Positions 26,819-49,805 of a DNA stretch of 64,000 nt are shown one piece after another. The position numbers and the translations under genes are program-made. Below the pieces are notes generated by a model that was given only the letters and a program-made list of their open reading frames with translations, ran no database searches and was not told the DNA's origin. Numbering within the stretch: position 1 is the first letter of the stretch; each line of letters opens with the position of its first letter. The stretch is from Chlamydiales bacterium (lineage in GTDB: Bacteria > Chlamydiota > Chlamydiia > Chlamydiales > JACKPQ01), in NCBI GenBank assembly GCA_024233435.1, contig JACKPQ010000002.1, positions 320,286 to 384,285 of the forward strand, given 5' to 3'.

Positions 26819-26879
26819 GCTGTTCCTTATAGTTGCTGTAGAAACCGTATACTAGCTCATGTCTAATTGATGCACAAGC

Positions 26880-28901
26880 TTAAGGCGGTGTGCACCCTGA
26901 GGAGTAAGTGACTGTACCAGCAGTGACAACAGGCCCCGTGTTACTAGTTGTGACAGTTGCCATGGAGTCAACCATGTTGAGGTCTTCAAGGCTGAACGTT
27001 GTCGCGGTGTTGCCAAGAAGCTCAAGACAACCAAAAGGAGCACTTAAAATAGATTCGACGCGGATAGCGTTTGTCAGTGCCACGTTGTTTGTTATGCTTG
27101 CATACTTAGTATAAAAAGGCGGAACACCTATGAATTGATGGAAAATACCGTTTGCTACAAGAGAAGAGCTTACCGTATTGTTCGAGATAACAATGCTCGA
27201 CAAACCGGCCTGTTCCGTAACAGCAATTGCTTCATTTCCTGCAGTTACCATATTTCCATCAATGATAATGGTATTTAGTGAGGGGTTACTTTGAATAGCG
27301 AATATTCGAATGCCGGTGTTGATCGGGGAAGTGATGGTATTGTTTTGTATTAAAGTGGCAGAAGTGTTGACGTTGTTAACTTCGATACTAGCTCCACCAA
27401 ACCCAGTCAGATCGGTATCTACAATTGTGTTATTGCTCACGTCTATTATACCATTAACATTAACAGTTGTGATAAATGGCATGCCCGTTGTGAAAGAATT
27501 GTTTTGGATGAATGTATCTTCTAAGCCAAATAGATTGAAGTAGGAAAAGCCGGTTGATAGCCCTGTTGTGACAGACGAATTTACCAAAGTAAATGCGGTG
27601 CTTCCTATCGAAGTTTGTGCGCCAAAAAAGCCACCTACAAACTCAAAGGCGTTAACAGATACTGCCCCTCCTTGCAATTCAAAAATAGTCCCAAACATAT
27701 CCACGTGGTCGAGCGCCGGTGCAATGGCTGTTTGTGCTGGGAAAACGATCCCATCTACAGTATGGGCGATGCCTGATCCTAAGAAGAACAAGTCGTGAGG
27801 CACAGTGACAAGGGCACTTGGCCCTGGCGTTGTGTAATTAATGCCAGTTCCATAGACGTATATGCAATCGCCAGCAACTGAAGCGTCAACAGCTTCCTGA
27901 ATTGTTTGAAAGGGCATTTCAAATGTGCCATCACCGCCAGCTGGAGCAGTATTGTCAACGAAGATACAATTGATCGTTGTGGACCCTGAACCTGATCCAG
28001 TAGTAAGAGCGCTGATCCTACTTGTGTTACAAACAGGGATAATTTCTTGGCGGATGACCCCTTGCGTCATGCGGCGTTGCATTTTGGCAGACGCAATGCA
28101 CTCTTGCAGGTACCAATTCCTCCACCGTTTACCTCTAGTGCGAATAGTATTAGGTCCTAAGGGAAAGCTCAATGATGCGTAACCATTAGCTCGGGTTTTG
28201 TATTCGCGGTCATAGCTGATTTCTCCACCAATAGAGATGCCATCGAAGATCAAAACACCCAACCGTGCCATACCGCCCCAGGAAGCGCCGCAGCGCTTGC
28301 CAAGCAAGTGTTTTTCAAATAGATAGTAAGGGCCAATTGATAAATAGGGATCGACTACCAGTCCAGGAATAGGAATTCCAAATTCTGCTCCGATATTTGG
28401 AAGAGCTGTTGTTGCTTTTTGTTTAATGTAAAGGGTATTGCCTGAAGCATAGGCAAATCGACGAGGAGTTTTACCGGTATCGTTACTTATTGGGATATAG
28501 CCGTTGAGTCTGAAGTCGACGTAAGGGTTTAACACTTCAAGACCAGGGCCTATTTGGTGCGCCCTTAGATTTCTTGCATCGCGAAAGTCATAGTAGCAGT
28601 TCGCTCCAAATGCCCACTGACCGGTCGCAAATCGCGATCCAATGCCAACGTTTGATGCTGTGCGCCCATCATTAAACATATGCCCTCGCATATCGAGAAA
28701 TGGCTGGAAGTTTCTTTGCCAATTTGGCGTTAAGAATCCAGAGACGGTTCCATATCCCTGGCGATAGCCAACGCCTTCAGGCGCGCGATATCTCATTGAT
28801 GCGTGTGAGGGGGTTCCGCGAATGCATGAGGTTTGCGCAAAACCCTGCACCAGGAACATAAAAGTGATGATCCAAAATTTCTTATCCACTGCTTCATACA
28901 T
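26880..28901 (-). CDS. Surface protein, copy 1: N-terminal inverse-autotransporter-like beta-barrel plus C-terminal parallel beta-helix passenger
   Basis: The track ORF is 687 aa (to 28943). The likelier start is the Met at 28901, which gives a signal peptide MYEAVDKKFWIITFMFLVQGFAQT. The barrel pattern is FLDMRGHMFNDGRTASNVGIGSRF..WAFGANCYYDFRD...GLE...VDFRLNGYIP. The passenger has a GDGTFEMPFQTIQEAV..A..GDCIYV motif and repeated NNTI/NNS beta-helix turns. Confidence 0.75.
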   Translation of the reverse strand: MYEAVDKKFWIITFMFLVQGFAQTSCIRGTPSHASMRYRAPEGVGYRQGYGTVSGFLTPNWQRNFQPFLDMRGHMFNDGRTASNVGIGSRFATGQWAFGANCYYDFRDARNLRAHQIGPGLEVLNPYVDFRLNGYIPISNDTGKTPRRFAYASGNTLYIKQKATTALPNIGAEFGIPIPGLVVDPYLSIGPYYLFEKHLLGKRCGASWGGMARLGVLIFDGISIGGEISYDREYKTRANGYASLSFPLGPNTIRTRGKRWRNWYLQECIASAKMQRRMTQGVIRQEIIPVCNTSRISALTTGSGSGSTTINCIFVDNTAPAGGDGTFEMPFQTIQEAVDASVAGDCIYVYGTGINYTTPGPSALVTVPHDLFFLGSGIAHTVDGIVFPAQTAIAPALDHVDMFGTIFELQGGAVSVNAFEFVGGFFGAQTSIGSTAFTLVNSSVTTGLSTGFSYFNLFGLEDTFIQNNSFTTGMPFITTVNVNGIIDVSNNTIVDTDLTGFGGASIEVNNVNTSATLIQNNTITSPINTGIRIFAIQSNPSLNTIIIDGNMVTAGNEAIAVTEQAGLSSIVISNNTVSSSLVANGIFHQFIGVPPFYTKYASITNNVALTNAIRVESILSAPFGCLELLGNTATTFSLEDLNMVDSMATVTTSNTGPVVTAGTVTYSSGCTPP

Positions 28902-28959
28902 ATATATATAATTCTTTTCCGTAAAGAATAATTTTAGGGTCAATTCGGTATGGCCAGCT

Positions 28960-29298
28960 TCACAGTCGATTAAGTTCTTTTAAGAGATCGCCAGTAGACG
29001 AATACAATTTTCCGGTCCACTCAGAAATATTGCGAGATTGCGTGCTGAAGTTAATCCCAATGACAGCAAGCTGACGATTTTGATGGGAGTATTTGCGGTT
29101 AGCATCAGCTGTTTTGGTGCAGCTTAAATTGTCTATAATGGGTTTATCATACTCATCGACTAGCACGACGACTTCAGCTATTTGAGAAAGCTTTTTCACC
29201 AAATTAGCAAGGCCTTCTTGTAATGTAGGTGTATCGATTGAAACTCCATAATTTAATGCAATTTCTGACAGTGATCTTTCGATGCTTTTTTCTAATTG
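28960..29298 (-). pseudogene. 3' fragment (last 112 codons) of the AAA-ATPase-like gene, duplicated with unit 1
   Basis: Identical to the C-terminal 112 aa of ORF 33830-34462 (QLEKSIERSL...KELNRL). The track ORF 28960-29472 is a chimera that reads 58 alt-frame codons out of the preceding surface-protein gene. Confidence 0.8.
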
Positions 29299-29308
29299 AT
29301 GCACAAGC

Positions 29309-31336
29309 TTAAGGCGGTGTGCACCCTGAGGAGTAAGTGACTGTACCAGCAGTGACAACAGGCCCCGTGTTACTAGTTGTGACAGTTGCCATGGAGTCAA
29401 CCATGTTGAGGTCTTCAAGGCTGAACGTTGTCGCGGTGTTGCCAAGAAGCTCAAGACAACCAAAAGGAGCACTTACAATAGATTCGACGCGGATAGCGTT
29501 TGTCAGTGCCACGTTGTTTGTTATGCTTGCATACTTATTATAAAAAGGCGGAACAAATGGATTGGTGAATTGATGGAAAATACCGTTTGCTACAAGAGAA
29601 GAGCTTACCGTATTGTTCGAGATAACAATGCTCGACAAACCGGACTGTTCCGTAACAGCAATTGCTTCATTTCCTGCAGTTACCATATTTCCATCAATGA
29701 TAATGGTATTTAGTGAGGGGTTACTTTGAATAGCGAATATTCGAATGCCGGTGTTGATCGGGGAAGTGATGGTATTGTTTTGTATTAAAGTGGCAGAAGT
29801 GTTGACGTTGTTAACTTCGATACTAGCTCCACCAAACCCAGTCAGATCGGTATCTACAATTGTGTTATTGCTCACGTCTATTATACCATTAACATTAACA
29901 GTTGTGATAAATGGCATGCCCGTTGTGAAAGAATTGTTTTGGATGAATGTATCTTCTAAGCCAAATAGATTGAAGTAGGAAAAGCCGGTTGATAGCCCTG
30001 TTGTGACAGACGAATTTACCAAAGTAAATGCGGTGCTTCCTATCGAAGTTTGTGCGCCAAAAAAGCCACCTACAAACTCAAAGGCGTTAACAGATACTGC
30101 CCCTCCTTGCAATTCAAAAATAGTCCCAAACATATCCACGTGGTCGAGCGCCGGTGCAATGGCTGTTTGTGCTGGGAAAACGATCCCATCTACAGTATGG
30201 GCGATGCCTGATCCTAAGAAGAACAAGTCGTGAGGCACAGTGACAAGGGCACTTGGCCCTGGCGTTGTGTAATTAATGCCAGTTCCATAGACGTATATGC
30301 AATCGCCAGCAACTGAAGCGTCAACAGCTTCCTGAATTGTTTGAAAGGGCATTTCAAATGTGCCATCACCGCCAGCTGGAGCAGTATTGTCAACGAAGAT
30401 ACAATTGATCGTTGTGGACCCTGAACCTGATCCAGTAGTAAGAGCGCTGATCCTACTTGTGTTACAAACAGGGATAATTTCTTGGCGGATGACCCCTTGC
30501 GTCATGCGGCGTTGCATTTTGGCAGACGCAATGCACTCTTGCAGGTACCAATTCCTCCACCGTTTACCTCTAGTGCGAATAGTATTAGGTCCTAAGGGAA
30601 AGCTCAATGATGCGTAACCATTAGCTCGGGTTTTGTATTCGCGGTCATAGCTGATTTCTCCACCAATAGAGATGCCATCGAAGATCAAAACACCCAACCG
30701 TGCCATACCGCCCCAGGAAGCGCCGCAGCGCTTGCCAAGCAAGTGTTTTTCAAATAGATAGTAAGGGCCAATTGATAAATAGGGATCGACTACCAGTCCA
30801 GGAATAGGAATTCCAAATTCTGCTCCGATATTTGGAAGAGCTGTTGTTGCTTTTTGTTTAATGTAAAGGGTATTGCCTGAAGCATAGGCAAATCGACGAG
30901 GAGTTTTACCGGTATCGTTACTTATTGGGATATAGCCGTTGAGTCTGAAGTCGACGTAAGGGTTTAACACTTCAAGACCAGGGCCTATTTGGTGCGCCCT
31001 TAGATTTCTTGCATCGCGAAAGTCATAGTAGCAGTTCGCTCCAAATGCCCACTGACCGGTCGCAAATCGCGATCCAATGCCAACGTTTGATGCTGTGCGC
31101 CCATCATTAAACATATGCCCTCGCATATCGAGAAATGGCTGGAAGTTTCTTTGCCAATTTGGCGTTAAGAATCCAGAGACGGTTCCATATCCCTGGCGAT
31201 AGCCAACGCCTTCAGGCGCGCGATATCTCATTGATGCGTGTGAGGGGGTTCCGCGAATGCATGAGGTTTGCGCAAAACCCTGCACCAGGAACATAAAAGT
31301 GATGATCCAAAATTTCTTATCCACTGCTTCATACAT
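29309..31336 (-). CDS. Surface protein, copy 2 (inverse-autotransporter-like barrel plus beta-helix passenger)
   Basis: The 689-aa track ORF runs to 31378, with a probable start at 31336. It is identical to copy 3 and differs from copy 1 only near the C-terminus. Confidence 0.75.
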   Translation of the reverse strand: MYEAVDKKFWIITFMFLVQGFAQTSCIRGTPSHASMRYRAPEGVGYRQGYGTVSGFLTPNWQRNFQPFLDMRGHMFNDGRTASNVGIGSRFATGQWAFGANCYYDFRDARNLRAHQIGPGLEVLNPYVDFRLNGYIPISNDTGKTPRRFAYASGNTLYIKQKATTALPNIGAEFGIPIPGLVVDPYLSIGPYYLFEKHLLGKRCGASWGGMARLGVLIFDGISIGGEISYDREYKTRANGYASLSFPLGPNTIRTRGKRWRNWYLQECIASAKMQRRMTQGVIRQEIIPVCNTSRISALTTGSGSGSTTINCIFVDNTAPAGGDGTFEMPFQTIQEAVDASVAGDCIYVYGTGINYTTPGPSALVTVPHDLFFLGSGIAHTVDGIVFPAQTAIAPALDHVDMFGTIFELQGGAVSVNAFEFVGGFFGAQTSIGSTAFTLVNSSVTTGLSTGFSYFNLFGLEDTFIQNNSFTTGMPFITTVNVNGIIDVSNNTIVDTDLTGFGGASIEVNNVNTSATLIQNNTITSPINTGIRIFAIQSNPSLNTIIIDGNMVTAGNEAIAVTEQSGLSSIVISNNTVSSSLVANGIFHQFTNPFVPPFYNKYASITNNVALTNAIRVESIVSAPFGCLELLGNTATTFSLEDLNMVDSMATVTTSNTGPVVTAGTVTYSSGCTPP

Positions 31337-31394
31337 ATATATATAATTCTTTTCCGTAAAGAATAATTTTAGGGTCAATTCGGTATGGCCAGCT

Positions 31395-31733
31395 TCACAG
31401 TCGATTAAGTTCTTTTAAGAGATCGCCAGTAGACGAATACAATTTTCCGGTCCACTCAGAAATATTGCGAGATTGCGTGCTGAAGTTAATCCCAATGACA
31501 GCAAGCTGACGATTTTGATGGGAGTATTTGCGGTTAGCATCAGCTGTTTTGGTGCAGCTTAAATTGTCTATAATGGGTTTATCATACTCATCGACTAGCA
31601 CGACGACTTCAGCTATTTGAGAAAGCTTTTTCACCAAATTAGCAAGGCCTTCTTGTAATGTAGGTGTATCGATTGAAACTCCATAATTTAATGCAATTTC
31701 TGACAGTGATCTTTCGATGCTTTTTTCTAATTG
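31395..31733 (-). pseudogene. 3' fragment of the AAA-ATPase-like gene, duplicated with unit 2
   Basis: Same 112 codons as 28960-29298 and the same chimeric 170-aa track ORF (31395-31907). Confidence 0.8.
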
Positions 31734-31743
31734 ATGCACAAGC

Positions 31744-33771
31744 TTAAGGCGGTGTGCACCCTGAGGAGTAAGTGACTGTACCAGCAGTGACAACAGGCCC
31801 CGTGTTACTAGTTGTGACAGTTGCCATGGAGTCAACCATGTTGAGGTCTTCAAGGCTGAACGTTGTCGCGGTGTTGCCAAGAAGCTCAAGACAACCAAAA
31901 GGAGCACTTACAATAGATTCGACGCGGATAGCGTTTGTCAGTGCCACGTTGTTTGTTATGCTTGCATACTTATTATAAAAAGGCGGAACAAATGGATTGG
32001 TGAATTGATGGAAAATACCGTTTGCTACAAGAGAAGAGCTTACCGTATTGTTCGAGATAACAATGCTCGACAAACCGGACTGTTCCGTAACAGCAATTGC
32101 TTCATTTCCTGCAGTTACCATATTTCCATCAATGATAATGGTATTTAGTGAGGGGTTACTTTGAATAGCGAATATTCGAATGCCGGTGTTGATCGGGGAA
32201 GTGATGGTATTGTTTTGTATTAAAGTGGCAGAAGTGTTGACGTTGTTAACTTCGATACTAGCTCCACCAAACCCAGTCAGATCGGTATCTACAATTGTGT
32301 TATTGCTCACGTCTATTATACCATTAACATTAACAGTTGTGATAAATGGCATGCCCGTTGTGAAAGAATTGTTTTGGATGAATGTATCTTCTAAGCCAAA
32401 TAGATTGAAGTAGGAAAAGCCGGTTGATAGCCCTGTTGTGACAGACGAATTTACCAAAGTAAATGCGGTGCTTCCTATCGAAGTTTGTGCGCCAAAAAAG
32501 CCACCTACAAACTCAAAGGCGTTAACAGATACTGCCCCTCCTTGCAATTCAAAAATAGTCCCAAACATATCCACGTGGTCGAGCGCCGGTGCAATGGCTG
32601 TTTGTGCTGGGAAAACGATCCCATCTACAGTATGGGCGATGCCTGATCCTAAGAAGAACAAGTCGTGAGGCACAGTGACAAGGGCACTTGGCCCTGGCGT
32701 TGTGTAATTAATGCCAGTTCCATAGACGTATATGCAATCGCCAGCAACTGAAGCGTCAACAGCTTCCTGAATTGTTTGAAAGGGCATTTCAAATGTGCCA
32801 TCACCGCCAGCTGGAGCAGTATTGTCAACGAAGATACAATTGATCGTTGTGGACCCTGAACCTGATCCAGTAGTAAGAGCGCTGATCCTACTTGTGTTAC
32901 AAACAGGGATAATTTCTTGGCGGATGACCCCTTGCGTCATGCGGCGTTGCATTTTGGCAGACGCAATGCACTCTTGCAGGTACCAATTCCTCCACCGTTT
33001 ACCTCTAGTGCGAATAGTATTAGGTCCTAAGGGAAAGCTCAATGATGCGTAACCATTAGCTCGGGTTTTGTATTCGCGGTCATAGCTGATTTCTCCACCA
33101 ATAGAGATGCCATCGAAGATCAAAACACCCAACCGTGCCATACCGCCCCAGGAAGCGCCGCAGCGCTTGCCAAGCAAGTGTTTTTCAAATAGATAGTAAG
33201 GGCCAATTGATAAATAGGGATCGACTACCAGTCCAGGAATAGGAATTCCAAATTCTGCTCCGATATTTGGAAGAGCTGTTGTTGCTTTTTGTTTAATGTA
33301 AAGGGTATTGCCTGAAGCATAGGCAAATCGACGAGGAGTTTTACCGGTATCGTTACTTATTGGGATATAGCCGTTGAGTCTGAAGTCGACGTAAGGGTTT
33401 AACACTTCAAGACCAGGGCCTATTTGGTGCGCCCTTAGATTTCTTGCATCGCGAAAGTCATAGTAGCAGTTCGCTCCAAATGCCCACTGACCGGTCGCAA
33501 ATCGCGATCCAATGCCAACGTTTGATGCTGTGCGCCCATCATTAAACATATGCCCTCGCATATCGAGAAATGGCTGGAAGTTTCTTTGCCAATTTGGCGT
33601 TAAGAATCCAGAGACGGTTCCATATCCCTGGCGATAGCCAACGCCTTCAGGCGCGCGATATCTCATTGATGCGTGTGAGGGGGTTCCGCGAATGCATGAG
33701 GTTTGCGCAAAACCCTGCACCAGGAACATAAAAGTGATGATCCAAAATTTCTTATCCACTGCTTCATACAT
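31744..33771 (-). CDS. Surface protein, copy 3 (inverse-autotransporter-like barrel plus beta-helix passenger)
   Basis: The 689-aa track ORF runs to 33813, with a probable start at 33771. Its translation is identical to copy 2. Confidence 0.75.
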   Translation of the reverse strand: MYEAVDKKFWIITFMFLVQGFAQTSCIRGTPSHASMRYRAPEGVGYRQGYGTVSGFLTPNWQRNFQPFLDMRGHMFNDGRTASNVGIGSRFATGQWAFGANCYYDFRDARNLRAHQIGPGLEVLNPYVDFRLNGYIPISNDTGKTPRRFAYASGNTLYIKQKATTALPNIGAEFGIPIPGLVVDPYLSIGPYYLFEKHLLGKRCGASWGGMARLGVLIFDGISIGGEISYDREYKTRANGYASLSFPLGPNTIRTRGKRWRNWYLQECIASAKMQRRMTQGVIRQEIIPVCNTSRISALTTGSGSGSTTINCIFVDNTAPAGGDGTFEMPFQTIQEAVDASVAGDCIYVYGTGINYTTPGPSALVTVPHDLFFLGSGIAHTVDGIVFPAQTAIAPALDHVDMFGTIFELQGGAVSVNAFEFVGGFFGAQTSIGSTAFTLVNSSVTTGLSTGFSYFNLFGLEDTFIQNNSFTTGMPFITTVNVNGIIDVSNNTIVDTDLTGFGGASIEVNNVNTSATLIQNNTITSPINTGIRIFAIQSNPSLNTIIIDGNMVTAGNEAIAVTEQSGLSSIVISNNTVSSSLVANGIFHQFTNPFVPPFYNKYASITNNVALTNAIRVESIVSAPFGCLELLGNTATTFSLEDLNMVDSMATVTTSNTGPVVTAGTVTYSSGCTPP

Positions 33772-33829
33772 ATATATATAATTCTTTTCCGTAAAGAATA
33801 ATTTTAGGGTCAATTCGGTATGGCCAGCT

Positions 33830-34462
33830 TCACAGTCGATTAAGTTCTTTTAAGAGATCGCCAGTAGACGAATACAATTTTCCGGTCCACTCAGAAATAT
33901 TGCGAGATTGCGTGCTGAAGTTAATCCCAATGACAGCAAGCTGACGATTTTGATGGGAGTATTTGCGGTTAGCATCAGCTGTTTTGGTGCAGCTTAAATT
34001 GTCTATAATGGGTTTATCATACTCATCGACTAGCACGACGACTTCAGCTATTTGAGAAAGCTTTTTCACCAAATTAGCAAGGCCTTCTTGTAATGTAGGT
34101 GTATCGATTGAAACTCCATAATTTAATGCAATTTCTGACAGTGATCTTTCGATGCTTTTTTCTAATTGCTCGGTTGTCTTATTAGGAATTTGAGTGAAAT
34201 CAAAATGAATGATAGGATGCTCAGTCCACGTGTAATCACTTTTACTAATGGAGCAATCTTTGAATAAAGCTTGATTTCCCTTCAAGATCTCTTCAAGTGT
34301 GCTAATAAAAAGGGACTTCCCAAACCGCCTTGGTCTTGACATGAAGTAATACTTTCCATTATCGATAAGCCGCTTTGCATCTGCGGTTTTATCGACGTAG
34401 GCATAGCCCCCTTCCAGGATCACACGGATAGACTGGATGCCGATGGGTAACTTTTTTATCAT
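33830..34462 (-). CDS. AAA-ATPase-like / PD-(D/E)XK family protein, internally shortened (possible pseudogene)
   Basis: 210 aa. The N-terminus KLPIGIQSIRVILEGGYAYVDKTADAKRLI..GKYYFMSRPRRFGKSLFISTLE is the hallmark of the 'predicted AAA-ATPase' family. A Walker-B-like VLVDEYD is followed almost immediately by the family's extreme C-terminal motif (LAVIGINFSTQSRNISEW). Family members are usually more than 450 aa. Confidence 0.65.
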   Translation of the reverse strand: MIKKLPIGIQSIRVILEGGYAYVDKTADAKRLIDNGKYYFMSRPRRFGKSLFISTLEEILKGNQALFKDCSISKSDYTWTEHPIIHFDFTQIPNKTTEQLEKSIERSLSEIALNYGVSIDTPTLQEGLANLVKKLSQIAEVVVLVDEYDKPIIDNLSCTKTADANRKYSHQNRQLAVIGINFSTQSRNISEWTGKLYSSTGDLLKELNRL

Positions 34463-44883: not shown

Positions 44884-46598
44884 TGCAAACGCTGCAAGCT
44901 TATCTAGCACATAAGGCCAACCAGGCAATTTCAGCTGCAATCGCAAGTGATTATCAACTTGCGGAGATCACTCAAAGCACGCAGGAAAAGTTTGGCCATT
45001 ATCAATGCAACTCAGCATTAAAACTTGCAAAAGAGCTCAAAGTCAATCCACGTGAATTGGCACAAAAAATTGCAAGCGGCATGGAATGTGAGCAAATTGA
45101 AAAGCTAGAAATTGCAGGGCCAGGATTTATCAACATTACACTTTCAGCCACCTTTTTATCTGAACAACTCAACGCGCAAAAGCAAGATGCAAAACTTGGC
45201 GCCCCAACGCCGCAAAAACCGCAGCGAATCATTGTTGAGTTTTCCTCACCAAATATTGCAAAAGAGTTGCACGTTGGGCATTTGCGCTCTACCATTATCG
45301 GCGATGCCATCGCGCGCCTTTTTGAGTTTTTAGGTCACGACGTCTTGCGCTTGAATCACGTGGGCGATTGGGGCACGCAGTTTGGAATGCTAATCACTTA
45401 TATGCGCGAGGAAGCGCCCGATGTGCTCTCTGGAGATAAGCAAACCGATTTAGTTACTCTCATGCAGTGGTATAAAGCGGCAAAGCAGCGCTTTGATGCA
45501 GATGTAGAATTTAAAAAACGCTCACAGTTAGCTGTTGTCGAGCTGCAAAGTGGTGATCCCAGCGCACACCAAGCCTGGGAAGCAATTTGCACCATTTCAC
45601 GCATGGCCTTTAATGAGATCTACTCATTGCTAGATGTTAAATTGCAAGAGCGCGGCGAATCATTTTATAATCCCATGCTCTCACAAATAGTGAACGACCT
45701 CGCATCCAAAGGACTTGTTGAAAAATCAGAAGGTGCCTCTTGCCTCTTTCTGGAAGGTTTCAAAGGGCAAGATGGAAAACCTTTCCCAATGATTATCCAG
45801 AAAAGCGATGGCGGTTACAATTACTCGACAACCGATATGGCTGCAATGCATCAACGTATTTTTGATGAAAAGGCCGAGCGCATCATCATTGTCACAGACA
45901 ATGGGCAAAAGCTTCACTTTGAAATGATTCGTGCTGCTTGCGAAAAAGCAGGTTATCTATCTCCATCAATAGAATTCAATCACGTAACATTTGGTGTAGT
46001 TCTCAATAGTGATGGAAAAAAATTTAAGTCGCGCGAAGGCGAGACAGAAAAGCTCATAGACCTGCTCACCGAAGCCATTCACCGTGCTGAGGCGATTTTC
46101 AAAGAGCGAAATCCCGATCTTTCCGATGACGAGCGTAAGAAAATGGCAACCATTTTGGGAGTCGATGCCATAAAATATGCAGACTTATCAGGTCTGCGCA
46201 CGAAAGACTACACCTTTAGCTACGAGCGCATGCTCCGATTTGAGGGTAATACAGCAGCATTTTTACTCTATGCCTACGTGCGCACAACAAGCATCTTAAA
46301 ACGCGTGGGTAAACCCTCTAACAGCGCAATCAAATTGCAGCACCCTTCAGAGATTGCCTTAGGGCTGCATCTACGCCAATTTGGTGAGGTGTTAACAGTG
46401 ATGACGCGCGATCTTTGCCCCAATCGCTTAGCAGATTATCTTTATGAGCTAGCAGAAAAATTCAATGCTTTTTTCCGCGACTGTCATGTCGAAAACACTC
46501 CAGAAGAGGCCGAGCGCCTTGCTCTTTGTGAATTGAGCTCAAAAGTTCTTGCTCAAGGACTCTCTCTTCTTGGGCTCAAAACCCTTGAGCGGATGTAA
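44883..46598 (+). CDS. argS: Arginine--tRNA ligase
   Basis: 571 aa with a class I HIGH-like SSPNIAKELHVGHLRS motif and a C-terminal DALR anticodon-binding region. Its start overlaps the upstream stop (TAATG). Confidence 0.95.
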   Translation: MQTLQAYLAHKANQAISAAIASDYQLAEITQSTQEKFGHYQCNSALKLAKELKVNPRELAQKIASGMECEQIEKLEIAGPGFINITLSATFLSEQLNAQKQDAKLGAPTPQKPQRIIVEFSSPNIAKELHVGHLRSTIIGDAIARLFEFLGHDVLRLNHVGDWGTQFGMLITYMREEAPDVLSGDKQTDLVTLMQWYKAAKQRFDADVEFKKRSQLAVVELQSGDPSAHQAWEAICTISRMAFNEIYSLLDVKLQERGESFYNPMLSQIVNDLASKGLVEKSEGASCLFLEGFKGQDGKPFPMIIQKSDGGYNYSTTDMAAMHQRIFDEKAERIIIVTDNGQKLHFEMIRAACEKAGYLSPSIEFNHVTFGVVLNSDGKKFKSREGETEKLIDLLTEAIHRAEAIFKERNPDLSDDERKKMATILGVDAIKYADLSGLRTKDYTFSYERMLRFEGNTAAFLLYAYVRTTSILKRVGKPSNSAIKLQHPSEIALGLHLRQFGEVLTVMTRDLCPNRLADYLYELAEKFNAFFRDCHVENTPEEAERLALCELSSKVLAQGLSLLGLKTLERM

Positions 46599-47230
46599 TG
46601 CGTCTTCTATATGTGGTGATTTTTGCCTTTATGGCGCTGCATGCAGACATCATTATCAAACCCACCACTGAGACCAAAACACAAATCATTTATCTTCATG
46701 GATTGATTGAAGGCGATGTTGAGCAAGCCTTAGAGCAAGAGGCTAAGACTTGGCAGCCTCTTGTTGATAAATACAACTTTGCGTTGGTGATGCCGGTTGG
46801 CACCAAAGGAGCCTTTCCTGATCAACCTGAAGCCTATGCTTGGGGCACAAGTGATATTTCACGCGTGAGGGCTCTTGCTCAGAACAGTGACTATGCTCAA
46901 TCAATTCTCTTTGGGTACTCAAATGGGGCTTTTTTAGTCGGTCAAATTTTACAACAGACTTGCGACACACCCTTTTCTGGATATTGGTTGCAAGGAGGTG
47001 GCAATGCGCAAGAGATTTTGCCGTGCGTGCCTCACAAGCCTGTCGTATTGCAGATAGGCGTCCAAGACACTCACCATTTGCAGCCAATGCAGTGGCTTAA
47101 AAGCGCACTGATCAAACATGGCTGGCAGGAAAATAAGACGTTGCTCTATCAAGAAATGCCAGGTTGCCATGCTTTCACACTTGATCATTTTGATGAAGCA
47201 TATAGATTTATTACAGGAGGTAGTCGATGA
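46598..47230 (+). CDS. Putative secreted alpha/beta hydrolase (esterase-like)
   Basis: 210 aa with a signal peptide (VVIFAFMALHA), a nucleophile-elbow-like GYSNGAF and a late His (GCHAF). Confidence 0.45.
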   Translation: MRLLYVVIFAFMALHADIIIKPTTETKTQIIYLHGLIEGDVEQALEQEAKTWQPLVDKYNFALVMPVGTKGAFPDQPEAYAWGTSDISRVRALAQNSDYAQSILFGYSNGAFLVGQILQQTCDTPFSGYWLQGGGNAQEILPCVPHKPVVLQIGVQDTHHLQPMQWLKSALIKHGWQENKTLLYQEMPGCHAFTLDHFDEAYRFITGGSR

Positions 47231-47239
47231 AAAATTCAA

Positions 47240-48535
47240 TGCTCATTTTATCATACAAGCGCCGAAAAACCCGGTCATTCATGGCCGGGATCAAAGGCGC
47301 AAAAAAATAACCTTGACTAAAGGATAAACGATTTTTTAAAATGTCGGCATGATCATTCGCAAGGCATTCAAATACAAGCTTAAGCCCAGAGCAGAGCAAA
47401 AGCAGCAATTTGCAAGCTTTGCAGGAGCCTGCCGCTACGTCTACAACCGAGGGTTGGCTCAACGAAAGCAAGCCTATCAAGAAAACAAACAAAACATAAG
47501 CTACTACGAGCAAAACAAAGAGCTCACACTACTCAAGCAACAAAAAGAGAGCACCTGGCTAAAAACCATCCACTCACAAATTCTCCAACAATCCCTCAAA
47601 GACCTAAACACCGCCTACACCCACTACTTCAAAAAAACAAACGCCCATCCCAAATTCAAAGCCAAAGGAATCCACGACTCCTTTCGCTACCCCCAAGGAG
47701 TCAAAATCCAAGATGACAAAGCCTACCTTCCCAAAATAGGGTGGGTACGTTACATCAAATCCCGAGAAATGCAAGGCACCCTCAAACAAACCACCATCAT
47801 CCGAGAAGGAGAGCATTGGTACATCAGCTTTTCCTGCGAAATAGAAGCACCCACACCAAACCCTGCTCCCCTAGATGAAAACAAAGCCATAGGCATAGAC
47901 GTAGGACTCACAAAATACGCGACCTGCGCCATAGGAAACAGCAACAAGCCCCTTACAATAGACCCACCCAAATACTACCACCGACTACTACCCAGGCTCA
48001 GAATACTCCAAAAGCGCCTCTCGAAAAAACAAAAAGGAAGCAGCAACTGGAAAAAAGCCAAAAGACAGCTTTTTAAACTCCACGCCAAAATAAAACATGC
48101 CCGAGAAAACTTTACCCATCAGCTCTCCACATGGATCGTTAAAAATCACAACATCATATGTGTAGAAACCCTAAACATAAAAGCCCTCATGCAAGACAAA
48201 AAATACAAACTAGCAAGATACATCAGCGATGCATCGTGGAGGCAATTTTTAACCTACCTCAAATACAAAGCCCAAGAACAAGGAAAACACTACATCGAAG
48301 CAGGAGCCTACAACCCCACCACCAAACAATGTTCCACCTGTGGCCACAAACAAGAGATAGAGTTAAAGCAAAGAACATACAGCTGCAAAAACTGTAGCCT
48401 CGAACTAGACAGAGACTACAACAGCAGCATAAACATCAAGGCCGCGGGAACATCGGTCTTAAAAAAGCTTGTGGAGCAGCCCGCTCGGGCAGCGTAGAAA
48501 CAAGAATTTCTCGCCTTCAGGCGAGAGAGGTTCAA
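47240..48535 (+). mobile_element. IS200/IS605-family element carrying only tnpB (IS1341-like, non-autonomous)
   Basis: The left subterminal hairpin is at 47259-47300 (inner stem 47270-47289 with a TTCA loop). The right hairpin TCTCGCC-TTCA-GGCGAGA is at 48509-48526. TTCAATG is present at both proposed borders (47235 and 48531), and the right end terminates in TCAA. No Y1 tnpA is present. The boundaries are inferred, not proven. Confidence 0.55.
47349..48497 (+). CDS. tnpB: TnpB (IS605 OrfB-type RNA-guided nuclease)
   Basis: 382 aa with the N-terminus AFKYKLKP..EQ, split RuvC residues (IGIDVGL; CVETLN; DRDYNSSINI) and a Zn finger CSTCGH...CKNCS. It appears intact. Confidence 0.9.
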   Translation: MIIRKAFKYKLKPRAEQKQQFASFAGACRYVYNRGLAQRKQAYQENKQNISYYEQNKELTLLKQQKESTWLKTIHSQILQQSLKDLNTAYTHYFKKTNAHPKFKAKGIHDSFRYPQGVKIQDDKAYLPKIGWVRYIKSREMQGTLKQTTIIREGEHWYISFSCEIEAPTPNPAPLDENKAIGIDVGLTKYATCAIGNSNKPLTIDPPKYYHRLLPRLRILQKRLSKKQKGSSNWKKAKRQLFKLHAKIKHARENFTHQLSTWIVKNHNIICVETLNIKALMQDKKYKLARYISDASWRQFLTYLKYKAQEQGKHYIEAGAYNPTTKQCSTCGHKQEIELKQRTYSCKNCSLELDRDYNSSINIKAAGTSVLKKLVEQPARAA

Positions 48536-48551
48536 TGTTGTTGGTATTTGC
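48386..48551 (+). ncRNA. Candidate TnpB omega-RNA (scaffold overlapping the tnpB 3' end to the right end, plus ~16-nt guide TGTTGTTGGTATTTGC)
   Basis: Placed by analogy with characterised TnpB loci. The terminal hairpin is at 48509-48526, followed by GAGGTTCAA, then flanking DNA. The 5' end is a guess. Confidence 0.3.
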
Positions 48552-48833
48552 CAAACATCTCCTCACTCATTATTCAGAGTGCTTCAGAAGATAAAGGTTC
48601 AGAGCACTTTGTTCCCTACGAGGCCTCCTGGGAAGATGGAACGTCAGTTATTCTGTTCTGTAATACGCTAACAGTGCAAGGCGAGCAATAGTTCAATTGT
48701 ATATCCATTATGGGTAGATGCTTGAGTCTAATTCAATAGGCTCAGCACTCTAGAAATAAATGAACACCATTGTTTTAGACGGTGATTTTTCCCTCAGTTG
48801 AGCTCTTCAAAATCCAAAGACTAGGTGATCAGT

Positions 48834-49805
48834 TTAAATAATGACAACTTTAGAAGAGGTGCCTGGCAGATCTTGGACGTACTGGGGGATGGCGTAGCCT
48901 GGAAGGCGCGTGCGTAGTTTGTTTAGCAGGTGTAGGCCCTTGGAAGTTGGGACTTCAAAGTGGGCTGTGCCCTGCACGCGGTCGAGCTGATGAAGGTAGT
49001 AGGGAAGAATAGCGTGGTCGGCAAGGGTTTCGAAGAGCTGATGGAGCGTATCGATGTCATCGTTGACGCGATGGAGTAGGACAGCTTGGTTGAGAACGGG
49101 GATGCCGATGTGTTGCAGGCGGCCAAGGGCTGCTAGGACAGTATCGTCTAGCTCGCGGGGGTGATTGATATGTGTTACAAAATAGATCTGCTTGGGCGAT
49201 TGGGTGAGAGTATGGAGAAGCTCAAGCGTGATGCGTTCAGGGATGCCAATGGGAAAGCGGCTATGAAGGCGAATACGGCGTATATGCGGGATTTGATTGA
49301 GCTGATCAATGAGATGTTGGAGTTTGTGATCGGAGAGGGAAAGGGGATCTCCACCGCTTAAAATCACCTCGGAGATCGTGTCATCGCGAGCGATGATATC
49401 AAGCTCTTGGATGTAGTCTTTGATTTGTGTTTCGTAAGGGTATTGCTGGCGGAAGCAGTAGCGGCAATGCATAGCGCAAGCAGATGTTGTGACAAGAAGG
49501 GCTCGTCCATTGTATTTATGCAAAAGTTTAGGTGTGCGTTGACAGGCGCGATCGCCGACAGGATCTGGTGTAAAGCCAGGTGTGATATGTGTTTCTTCGA
49601 TGAGAGGAATAAATTGGCGTATGAGAGGATCATCGAGCGTTCCCTTTGGCATTTTTTGAGCAAGCCTTAAGGGAATGTTTAGGGGAAATGAGGGATTAAT
49701 GAGCGCTGCGCTTTTCTCGATTTTTAGAAATTCAATGAGTTGATCATGGCGGGTGATATTGCTACGCTGTATTTGTCGCCAGCGAGGGAGTGTAATGGTT
49801 GTCAT
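48834..49805 (-). CDS. epmB: Lysine 2,3-aminomutase-like radical SAM protein (EF-P beta-lysylation, EpmB/YjeK)
   Basis: 323 aa with a radical-SAM CAMHCRYCFR motif, the KamA family layout and GGDPL. Confidence 0.85.
   Translation of the reverse strand: MTTITLPRWRQIQRSNITRHDQLIEFLKIEKSAALINPSFPLNIPLRLAQKMPKGTLDDPLIRQFIPLIEETHITPGFTPDPVGDRACQRTPKLLHKYNGRALLVTTSACAMHCRYCFRQQYPYETQIKDYIQELDIIARDDTISEVILSGGDPLSLSDHKLQHLIDQLNQIPHIRRIRLHSRFPIGIPERITLELLHTLTQSPKQIYFVTHINHPRELDDTVLAALGRLQHIGIPVLNQAVLLHRVNDDIDTLHQLFETLADHAILPYYLHQLDRVQGTAHFEVPTSKGLHLLNKLRTRLPGYAIPQYVQDLPGTSSKVVII

Follow-up and report, generated by a model that had tools for sequence, protein, structure and literature searches.

A probable non-autonomous IS200/IS605-family insertion sequence with an intact tnpB and a predicted omega-RNA in a Chlamydiales genome

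Results

An intact tnpB without tnpA

The window analyzed here is a 64,000-nt stretch of contig JACKPQ010000002.1 from a metagenome-assembled genome (MAG) of a Chlamydiales bacterium; all positions below refer to this window. An intergenic region that follows a gene for a 210-aa protein contains a single tnpB gene with a DNA hairpin on either side. As detailed below, the segment at 47252–48535 is very probably a non-autonomous insertion sequence of the IS200/IS605 family whose tnpA has been lost while tnpB remains intact. Features of the locus are listed in Table 1.

The TnpB protein matched the Pfam families HTH_OrfB_IS605, OrfB_IS605, and Cas12f1-like_TNB, all well above curated cut-offs. 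In an alignment of the window TnpB with 15 homologues (16 sequences in all, 56 to 98% identity), the catalytic residues D184 (in GIDVG), E273 (CVE), and D356 (RDYNS) as well as the zinc-finger cysteines C328/C331/C346/C349 (CxxC...CxxC) were invariant. Residues 1–365 matched the solved structures of ISDra2 TnpB from Deinococcus radiodurans (PDB 8H1J, 8BF8, and 8EXA; E = 2e-65), which is the closest natural TnpB of solved structure; the two proteins share domain order and catalytic residues, and their overall sequence identity is modest. These results bear out a first-pass annotation, made from the sequence alone, which had described an intact solo tnpB with RuvC D/E/D residues and a zinc finger and had noted that no tnpA stands beside it. 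Neither a tnpA nor a second tnpB was found in the 64-kb window.

The window protein has the same sequence as MCP5492393.1, a protein labeled TnpB on a 641-kb contig of a Chlamydiales MAG, and this MAG record holds a second copy that is 98% identical (MCP5492330.1). Close copies with accompanying DNA came from metagenomes (L004, L005, and L006/L007; 98% protein identity) and from a 1.59-Mb contig (L003; 82%); a further 80 metagenome loci were 36 to 98% identical. When a genome collection was scanned, only two distant TnpBs matched. Between the window and L004, 23 of the 32 nucleotide differences in tnpB lie at third codon positions, with 19 synonymous and 8 non-synonymous codon changes. This excess of third-position changes indicates purifying selection. 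In most relatives, the TTGACT of the promoter-like site is conserved in an equivalent position ahead of tnpB.

Table 1. Coordinates of the element and of its component features in the window.
Feature	Position	Strand	Description
Whole element	47252–48535	+	1,284 bp, tnpA-less, no target-site duplication; from L087 junction alignment
Target site and predicted TAM, TTTAT	47247–47251	+	Flank, outside element; TTAT is the left cleavage motif
Left end	47252–47312	+	Nested hairpin and predicted DNA guide AAAA; from fold, conservation, and the IS608 rule
Left outer stem	47259–47263 with 47296–47300	+	GCGCC with GGCGC
Predicted DNA guide AAAA	47266–47269	+	Just before foot of inner hairpin
Left inner hairpin	47270–47289	+	CCCGGTCA-TTCA-TGGCCGGG, inside outer stem
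Putative tnpB promoter	47313–47342	+	TTGACT-18 nt-TAAAAT, 10 of 12 consensus positions
tnpB	47349–48497	+	382 aa, intact
Predicted omega-RNA scaffold (covariation-supported part) and right end	48426–48535	+	From covariation and covariance model
Omega-RNA helix 1	48439–48459	+	Hairpin within tnpB 3′ end
Omega-RNA helix 2	48468–48472 with 48500–48504	+	Long-range, CTTGT/ACAAG
Omega-RNA helix 3	48476–48482 with 48487–48493	+	Hairpin enclosed by helix 2
GAAT	48504–48507	+	Before right stem
Right-end hairpin (fourth helix)	48508–48527	+	From covariation
Right cleavage motif TCAA	48532–48535	+	8 to 9 nt after right stem
Predicted guide TGTTGTTGGTATTTGC	48536–48551	+	16 nt of flank, predicted 3′ tail of omega-RNA

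An empty allele places both ends to the nucleotide

Through a homologue 98% identical to the neighboring 210-aa protein, we found a metagenome contig, L087, that represents the same locus without the element. The contig aligned to window positions 46436–47251 at 96.4% identity and then jumped to 48536–48709 at 95%. With junctions marked by a slash, the empty allele reads ...AAAAATTCCATGCTTGTTTCAT/TGTTGTTGGTATTTGCAAAAC (that is, ...GTTTCAT/TGTTGTTGG), and the occupied allele reads ...AAAAATTCAATGCTCATTTTAT/CATACAAGCGCC ... GAGAGGTTCAA/TGTTGTTGGTATTTGCC. A shift of either junction by 1 nt breaks the match; therefore, the element extends from 47252 to 48535, with both ends defined to the nucleotide. 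Comparison of the two alleles shows that the target is not duplicated. The insertion, which lies directly 3′ of TTTAT, is polymorphic between strains with 95 to 96% identical flanks.

The five close copies were consistent with these boundaries: they are common from TTTAT/CA... to ...GGTTCAA/ and diverge outside. The copies in L004, L005, and L007 are 0 to 4 nt apart in tnpB and have different flanks, which implies that the element has moved recently in that population. The right flank is, however, common to L005 and L007, and these two may in part be assembly chimeras. The first-pass annotation had placed the element at 47240–48535 and had proposed a comparison with further copies and empty sites as a check. 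This comparison confirmed the right end; the left end moved 12 nt further in.

The left end is marked by TTTAT and a nested hairpin

The hairpins that had been recognized on either side of tnpB were confirmed. Both are subterminal and located on the + strand, and both show compensatory changes in relatives. The DNA of the nested left hairpin (47259–47300) folded with z = −3.1 compared to shuffled sequence, and the nested arrangement is conserved in relatives despite changed stem sequences. The right hairpin, TCTCGCC-TTCA-GGCGAGA at 48509–48526, yielded z = −3.7.

In all five close copies, TTTAT directly precedes the element, while the DNA farther upstream is unrelated. Approximately 20 distinct left ends of the wider family carry TTAT (mostly as TTTAT) 17 to 19 nt before the foot of the inner hairpin; in the window, the left cleavage point is 18 nt 5′ of this foot. 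The 4 nt directly before the foot are AAAA, both in the close copies and in the left ends of the ~20 relatives. Of every copy examined, L027 alone lacks TTAT or TTTAT at the left junction and has TTGT instead. One related element was present in six copies (L012–L015, L023, and L040) with six different flanks that converge only at TTAT.

The first-pass annotation had proposed a TAM (target-adjacent motif) of about TTCAA. Since the occupied locus has the element's own TTCAA before the guide-matching DNA, such a TAM would make the element target itself; thus, TTCAA cannot be the TAM. Judging from the occupied copies and relatives, the predicted target motif and TAM is TTTAT, and TCAA is the motif of the element's own right end. 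At the left end, TTAT would be read by AAAA, and at the right end, TCAA by the GAAT that precedes the right stem; by sequence, these combinations fit the IS608 pattern. The IS608-like geometry recognized earlier was thus sound, but it had been applied one motif too far left.

The right end coincides with the end of a predicted omega-RNA scaffold

All close copies have ...CTCGCCTTCAGGCGAGAGAGGTTCAA in common and diverge completely after it. In ~40 relatives, the right end is built in the same order, with GAAGCAAGAAT before a TTYA-loop hairpin and AGGTTCAA after it, and the flank beyond is unrelated. The divergence of all copies right after ...GGTTCAA places the right end at 48535. In the empty allele, the target site is succeeded by the 16 nt that come next here, TGTTGTTGGTATTTGC, and their exact match is unique in the window.

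To derive an RNA consensus, we aligned the 3′-terminal 240 nt of 28 elements. Four helices were found in the final ~100 nt, with compensatory changes in 19 of the 27 base pairs. The fraction of paired cells was 94.8%, compared to 79.4% for shuffled alignments and 42 to 56% for slid controls, and none of 500 shuffles reached any observed measure. A covariance model made from 27 sequences scored 99.7 bits at 48426–48535 and detected no other copy in the window. Outside the training set, the model matched directly 3′ of two TnpBs with 31 to 35% identity, and each of these matches ends in TCAA. These data point to a structured omega-RNA whose scaffold ends exactly at the element boundary and is followed by a flank-derived guide, and so the scaffold end and guide suggested in the first-pass annotation are retained as predictions.

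Beyond the right end, at a distance of 47 nt, the segment CTTCAGAAGATAAAGGTTCA (48582–48601) has 80% identity with positions 48515–48534, the 3′ half of the element's right end, and lies in a weak hairpin. Since it is also found in the empty allele, it is native flank. We rejected the possibility that it is a relic of an older right end, because it is present in the empty allele and is not seen by the covariance model.

tnpA was lost stepwise

In most relatives, an intact tnpA encoding a Y1 transposase of ~138 aa with HUH motifs lies upstream of tnpB on the opposite strand, and the left hairpin is located beyond tnpA. The L003 copy retains a tnpA relic consisting of codons 1–20 and 98–137 only. 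In the window copy and in L004–L007, the left hairpin directly abuts the putative promoter region of tnpB. As relatives keep a whole tnpA and L003 keeps a relic, the solo tnpB is the result of a secondary deletion, and, without a TnpA of its own, this copy is a non-autonomous derivative of the IS200/IS605 family. The locus thus provides a clean natural series of tnpA loss, from an intact gene through a relic to nothing.

The tnpB coding strand is enriched in A and C

The A/C richness of the tnpB coding strand seen in the first-pass annotation is real: its AT skew is 0.44 and its GC skew is −0.27, compared to 0.05 ± 0.10 and −0.06 ± 0.11 for 40 long open reading frames (ORFs) of the window. At third codon positions, the skews increase to 0.63 and −0.56. 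Fourfold-degenerate sites of tnpB are 35% A, 50% C, 7% G, and 8% T (85% A/C), while those of neighboring genes are roughly 20 to 30% A, 17 to 48% C, 7 to 17% G, and 24 to 40% T. The skew is strongest in the tnpA-less window copy and intermediate in the 82% identical L003 copy, which carries the tnpA relic; there is little or none in more distant relatives, and relatives with a tnpA lack it.

Foreign origin, which had been argued from this composition, is unproven. Since the G+C content of tnpB equals that of the host (45%) and distant relatives lack the skew, the bias does not look like the plain imprint of a donor's base composition. The skew might instead be a mutational footprint of a single-strand life cycle of the element: a bottom strand left unpaired, by repeated peel-out of the top strand or in R-loops, might be deaminated, producing G-to-A and T-to-C changes on the top strand. 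We consider this explanation a long shot.

Discussion

Comparison with known elements

In its end architecture, the element parallels IS608 of Helicobacter pylori. In IS608, tnpA and tnpB are co-oriented, and the right-hand guide is GAAT. The four bases just before the left hairpin foot of IS608, AAAG, recognize the left cleavage site, TTAC, at a distance of 19 nt on the 5′ side of the foot. The right cleavage site, TCAA, is found 10 nt beyond the right hairpin on its 3′ side, and alteration of the left guide predictably alters the target (PMC3201880). The window element resembles IS608 in having subterminal hairpins on one strand, a left site ~18 to 19 nt 5′ of the foot, TCAA at the right end, and no target duplication. 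Its TTAT/AAAA combination follows the TTAC/AAAG pattern with a C:G pair replaced by T:A. Unlike in IS608, the left hairpin is nested in an extra outer stem, tnpA of the relatives is divergent from tnpB, and the window copy has no tnpA. The IS608 subgroup is defined by a TTAC target and by co-oriented, overlapping tnpA and tnpB; with TTAT as the motif and tnpA on the opposite strand in relatives, the window element falls outside it.

In terms of motif and layout, the element also resembles ISGst2 of Geobacillus stearothermophilus. Meers et al. reported that TnpB2 of this element has the TAM TTTAT, equal to the motif flanking its left end, and that its guide, derived from the right-end flank, directs cutting of the donor joint left by scarless excision (bioRxiv 10.1101/2023.03.14.532601). 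The study also describes a sister element with TTCAT and a single TnpA that mobilizes elements of both types, TTTAT and TTCAT (bioRxiv 10.1101/2023.03.14.532601). These are the same two variants that we find in the occupied and empty alleles. The likeness, drawn from the shared family, motif, and layout, has its limits: ISGst2 comes from a host of another phylum, and the window copy lacks tnpA.

For ISDra2, the omega-RNA overlaps the 3′ end of tnpB, and the TAM is TTGAT. No Rfam or other model links the window RNA with the ISDra2 RNA. Elements of the IS1341 type, in the ISfinder grouping, consist of tnpB alone between IS200/IS605-type ends and depend on TnpA in trans. The window element is similar to them in organization, but its tnpA-less state is demonstrably secondary.

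A proposed life cycle

The scenario outlined here is modeled on these systems; expression of the RNA, nuclease activity, TAM use, and current mobility are its predictions. The ancestor would have been an element with divergently oriented tnpA and tnpB, of which both hairpin ends, the promoter, and tnpB were retained. A Y1 TnpA supplied in trans would bind both TTYA-loop hairpins on the top strand. It would cut the left end after TTAT, a site recognized through the AAAA that precedes the inner hairpin, and the right end after TCAA, and the top strand would move as a single-stranded circle. TnpB would bind an omega-RNA whose transcript covers at least the final ~110 nt of the element and continues into the flanking DNA. 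The predicted substrate of this complex is DNA consisting of TTTAT followed by TGTTGTTGGTATTTGC, i.e., the scarless donor joint or the empty allele, whose cutting would drive re-copying of the element by recombination. As a separate and improbable possibility, a TAM-escape mutation might account for the TTCAT of the empty allele and shield that site from cutting by TnpB.

That the gene encodes a TnpB was already known from the label in the public MAG record, and its importance beyond annotation is small. What is new is the nucleotide-exact map of the ends, TTTAT, TCAA, the guide, and the covariation-supported scaffold, together with a covariance model that finds the same module beside distant TnpBs. 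The map would allow testing of a compact 382-aa nuclease with a defined predicted TAM and guide.

Alternative readings

Several observations weigh against the interpretation of the locus as a non-autonomous IS200/IS605-family element with a functional RNA module. An Rfam scan of 46500–49500 at E ≤ 10 matched no family. Position 48508 is T in the window and C in all close copies, which changes the foot pair of the right hairpin from C-G to T·G. The empty allele has TTCAT where the occupied allele has TTTAT, and so our deduction of the motif at the time of insertion comes from occupied copies. L087 could also be a product of excision instead of a never-occupied site, in which case the boundaries would be identical. 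Finally, the 64-kb window holds no tnpA, and the named Chlamydiales TnpA matches (MCP5509xxx/5510xxx) belong to a MAG other than that of the window (MCP54923xx).

The last point leads to the alternative that, with no TnpA in the genome, the element is an immobile fossil or a domesticated gene, its tnpB either decaying or kept for a host role such as RNA-guided regulation. The absence of tnpA from the 64 kb, its stepwise loss in this sub-lineage, and the weakened foot pair agree with such a history, and the odd synonymous composition suggests long residence under an unusual mutational regime. However, the catalytic triad and the zinc finger are intact, while the known domesticated TnpB regulators, TldRs, have reportedly lost RuvC residues. 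Both ends, the target motif, and the RNA helices have likewise remained intact. The insertion is, moreover, polymorphic between strains with 95 to 96% identical flanks, and in a sister population, almost identical copies lie in different flanks, which implies that they moved recently. We regard a fossil or domesticated gene as unlikely and favor a non-autonomous element that keeps its ends and an intact tnpB.

The second alternative is the geometry of the first-pass annotation, in which TTCAA lies on both sides of an element at 47240–48535 and serves as the TAM. It drew on two occurrences of TTCAA, one located 19 nt ahead of the outer left stem and the other at the right end. TTCAATG does occur at both sites (47235–47241 and 48531–48537), but the left copy is flank and not a border, as the empty allele carries it too, in the form TTCCATG. 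The heptamer occurs 25 times in the window compared to 19.9 ± 4.5 expected, i.e., at chance frequency. The 12 nt in dispute, TGCTCATTTTAT (47240–47251), are also flank: L087 keeps their homologue, TGCTTGTTTCAT, whereas the earlier geometry would need an empty site reading ...AAATTCAA/TGTTGTTGG. Three of the five close copies (L003, L005, and L007) have neither TTCAA nor TGCTCAT at that position, and the left junction of the ~20 relatives is TTAT and not TCAA.

The L004 copy, in which TTCAA lies 12 nt upstream of the left end and is followed by a similar 11 nt, could be cited in favor of that geometry. The left flanks of L004 (~630–662) and the window (47225–47251), GGATGCGGAAAATTTATTCAACGCTCGCTTTAT and CGATGAAAAATTCAATGCTCATTTTAT, are similar although they belong to different loci; both contain TTCAA, then YGCTCRY, then TTTAT. 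Their local alignment score of 22, compared to a shuffle mean of 14.9, was equaled or exceeded in 3 of 500 shuffles, a frequency uncorrected for the 15 comparisons made. We treat this likeness as chance or a weak extended target preference. Transduction of the left flank, or a left end further out, was rejected, because L087 retains that DNA and the similarity is marginal. Considering also that an occupied site with a TTCAA TAM would be cut by its own nuclease, the earlier geometry is scarcely tenable.

Variation around the element and other repeats in the window

The interval between the 210-aa gene and a radical-SAM gene, which contains the element (47231–48833), varies between strains. In L087, two unrelated small genes follow ~175 nt of shared flank. 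In a relative genome, L088, there are an IS110-family transposase upstream and four extra genes, including a helix-turn-helix–Fic pair; this locus was considered as an empty site and rejected, being too rearranged after the 210-aa gene. At L088 positions 7617–7801, part of the 3′ end of the radical-SAM gene is present as a 147-nt duplicate (80% identical to window 48833–48979) that runs straight into a 39-nt piece of the tnpB 3′ end and RNA helix 1 (92% identical to 48422–48460). The fusion, at which the covariance model gave a weak match of 16 bits, looks like the trace left at this locus by an older tnpB element and by a rearrangement.

Elsewhere in the window, positions 26855–34006 comprise three tandem copies of a 2,435-bp unit with 98 to 100% identity, each containing a minus-strand ORF of ~689 aa (26880–28943, 29309–31378, and 31744–33813). 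Tandem repeats of 99/120 nt, in 7 to 8 units with 64 to 90% identity, are located at 8392–9242 within a minus-strand ORF of 325 aa (8380–9357).

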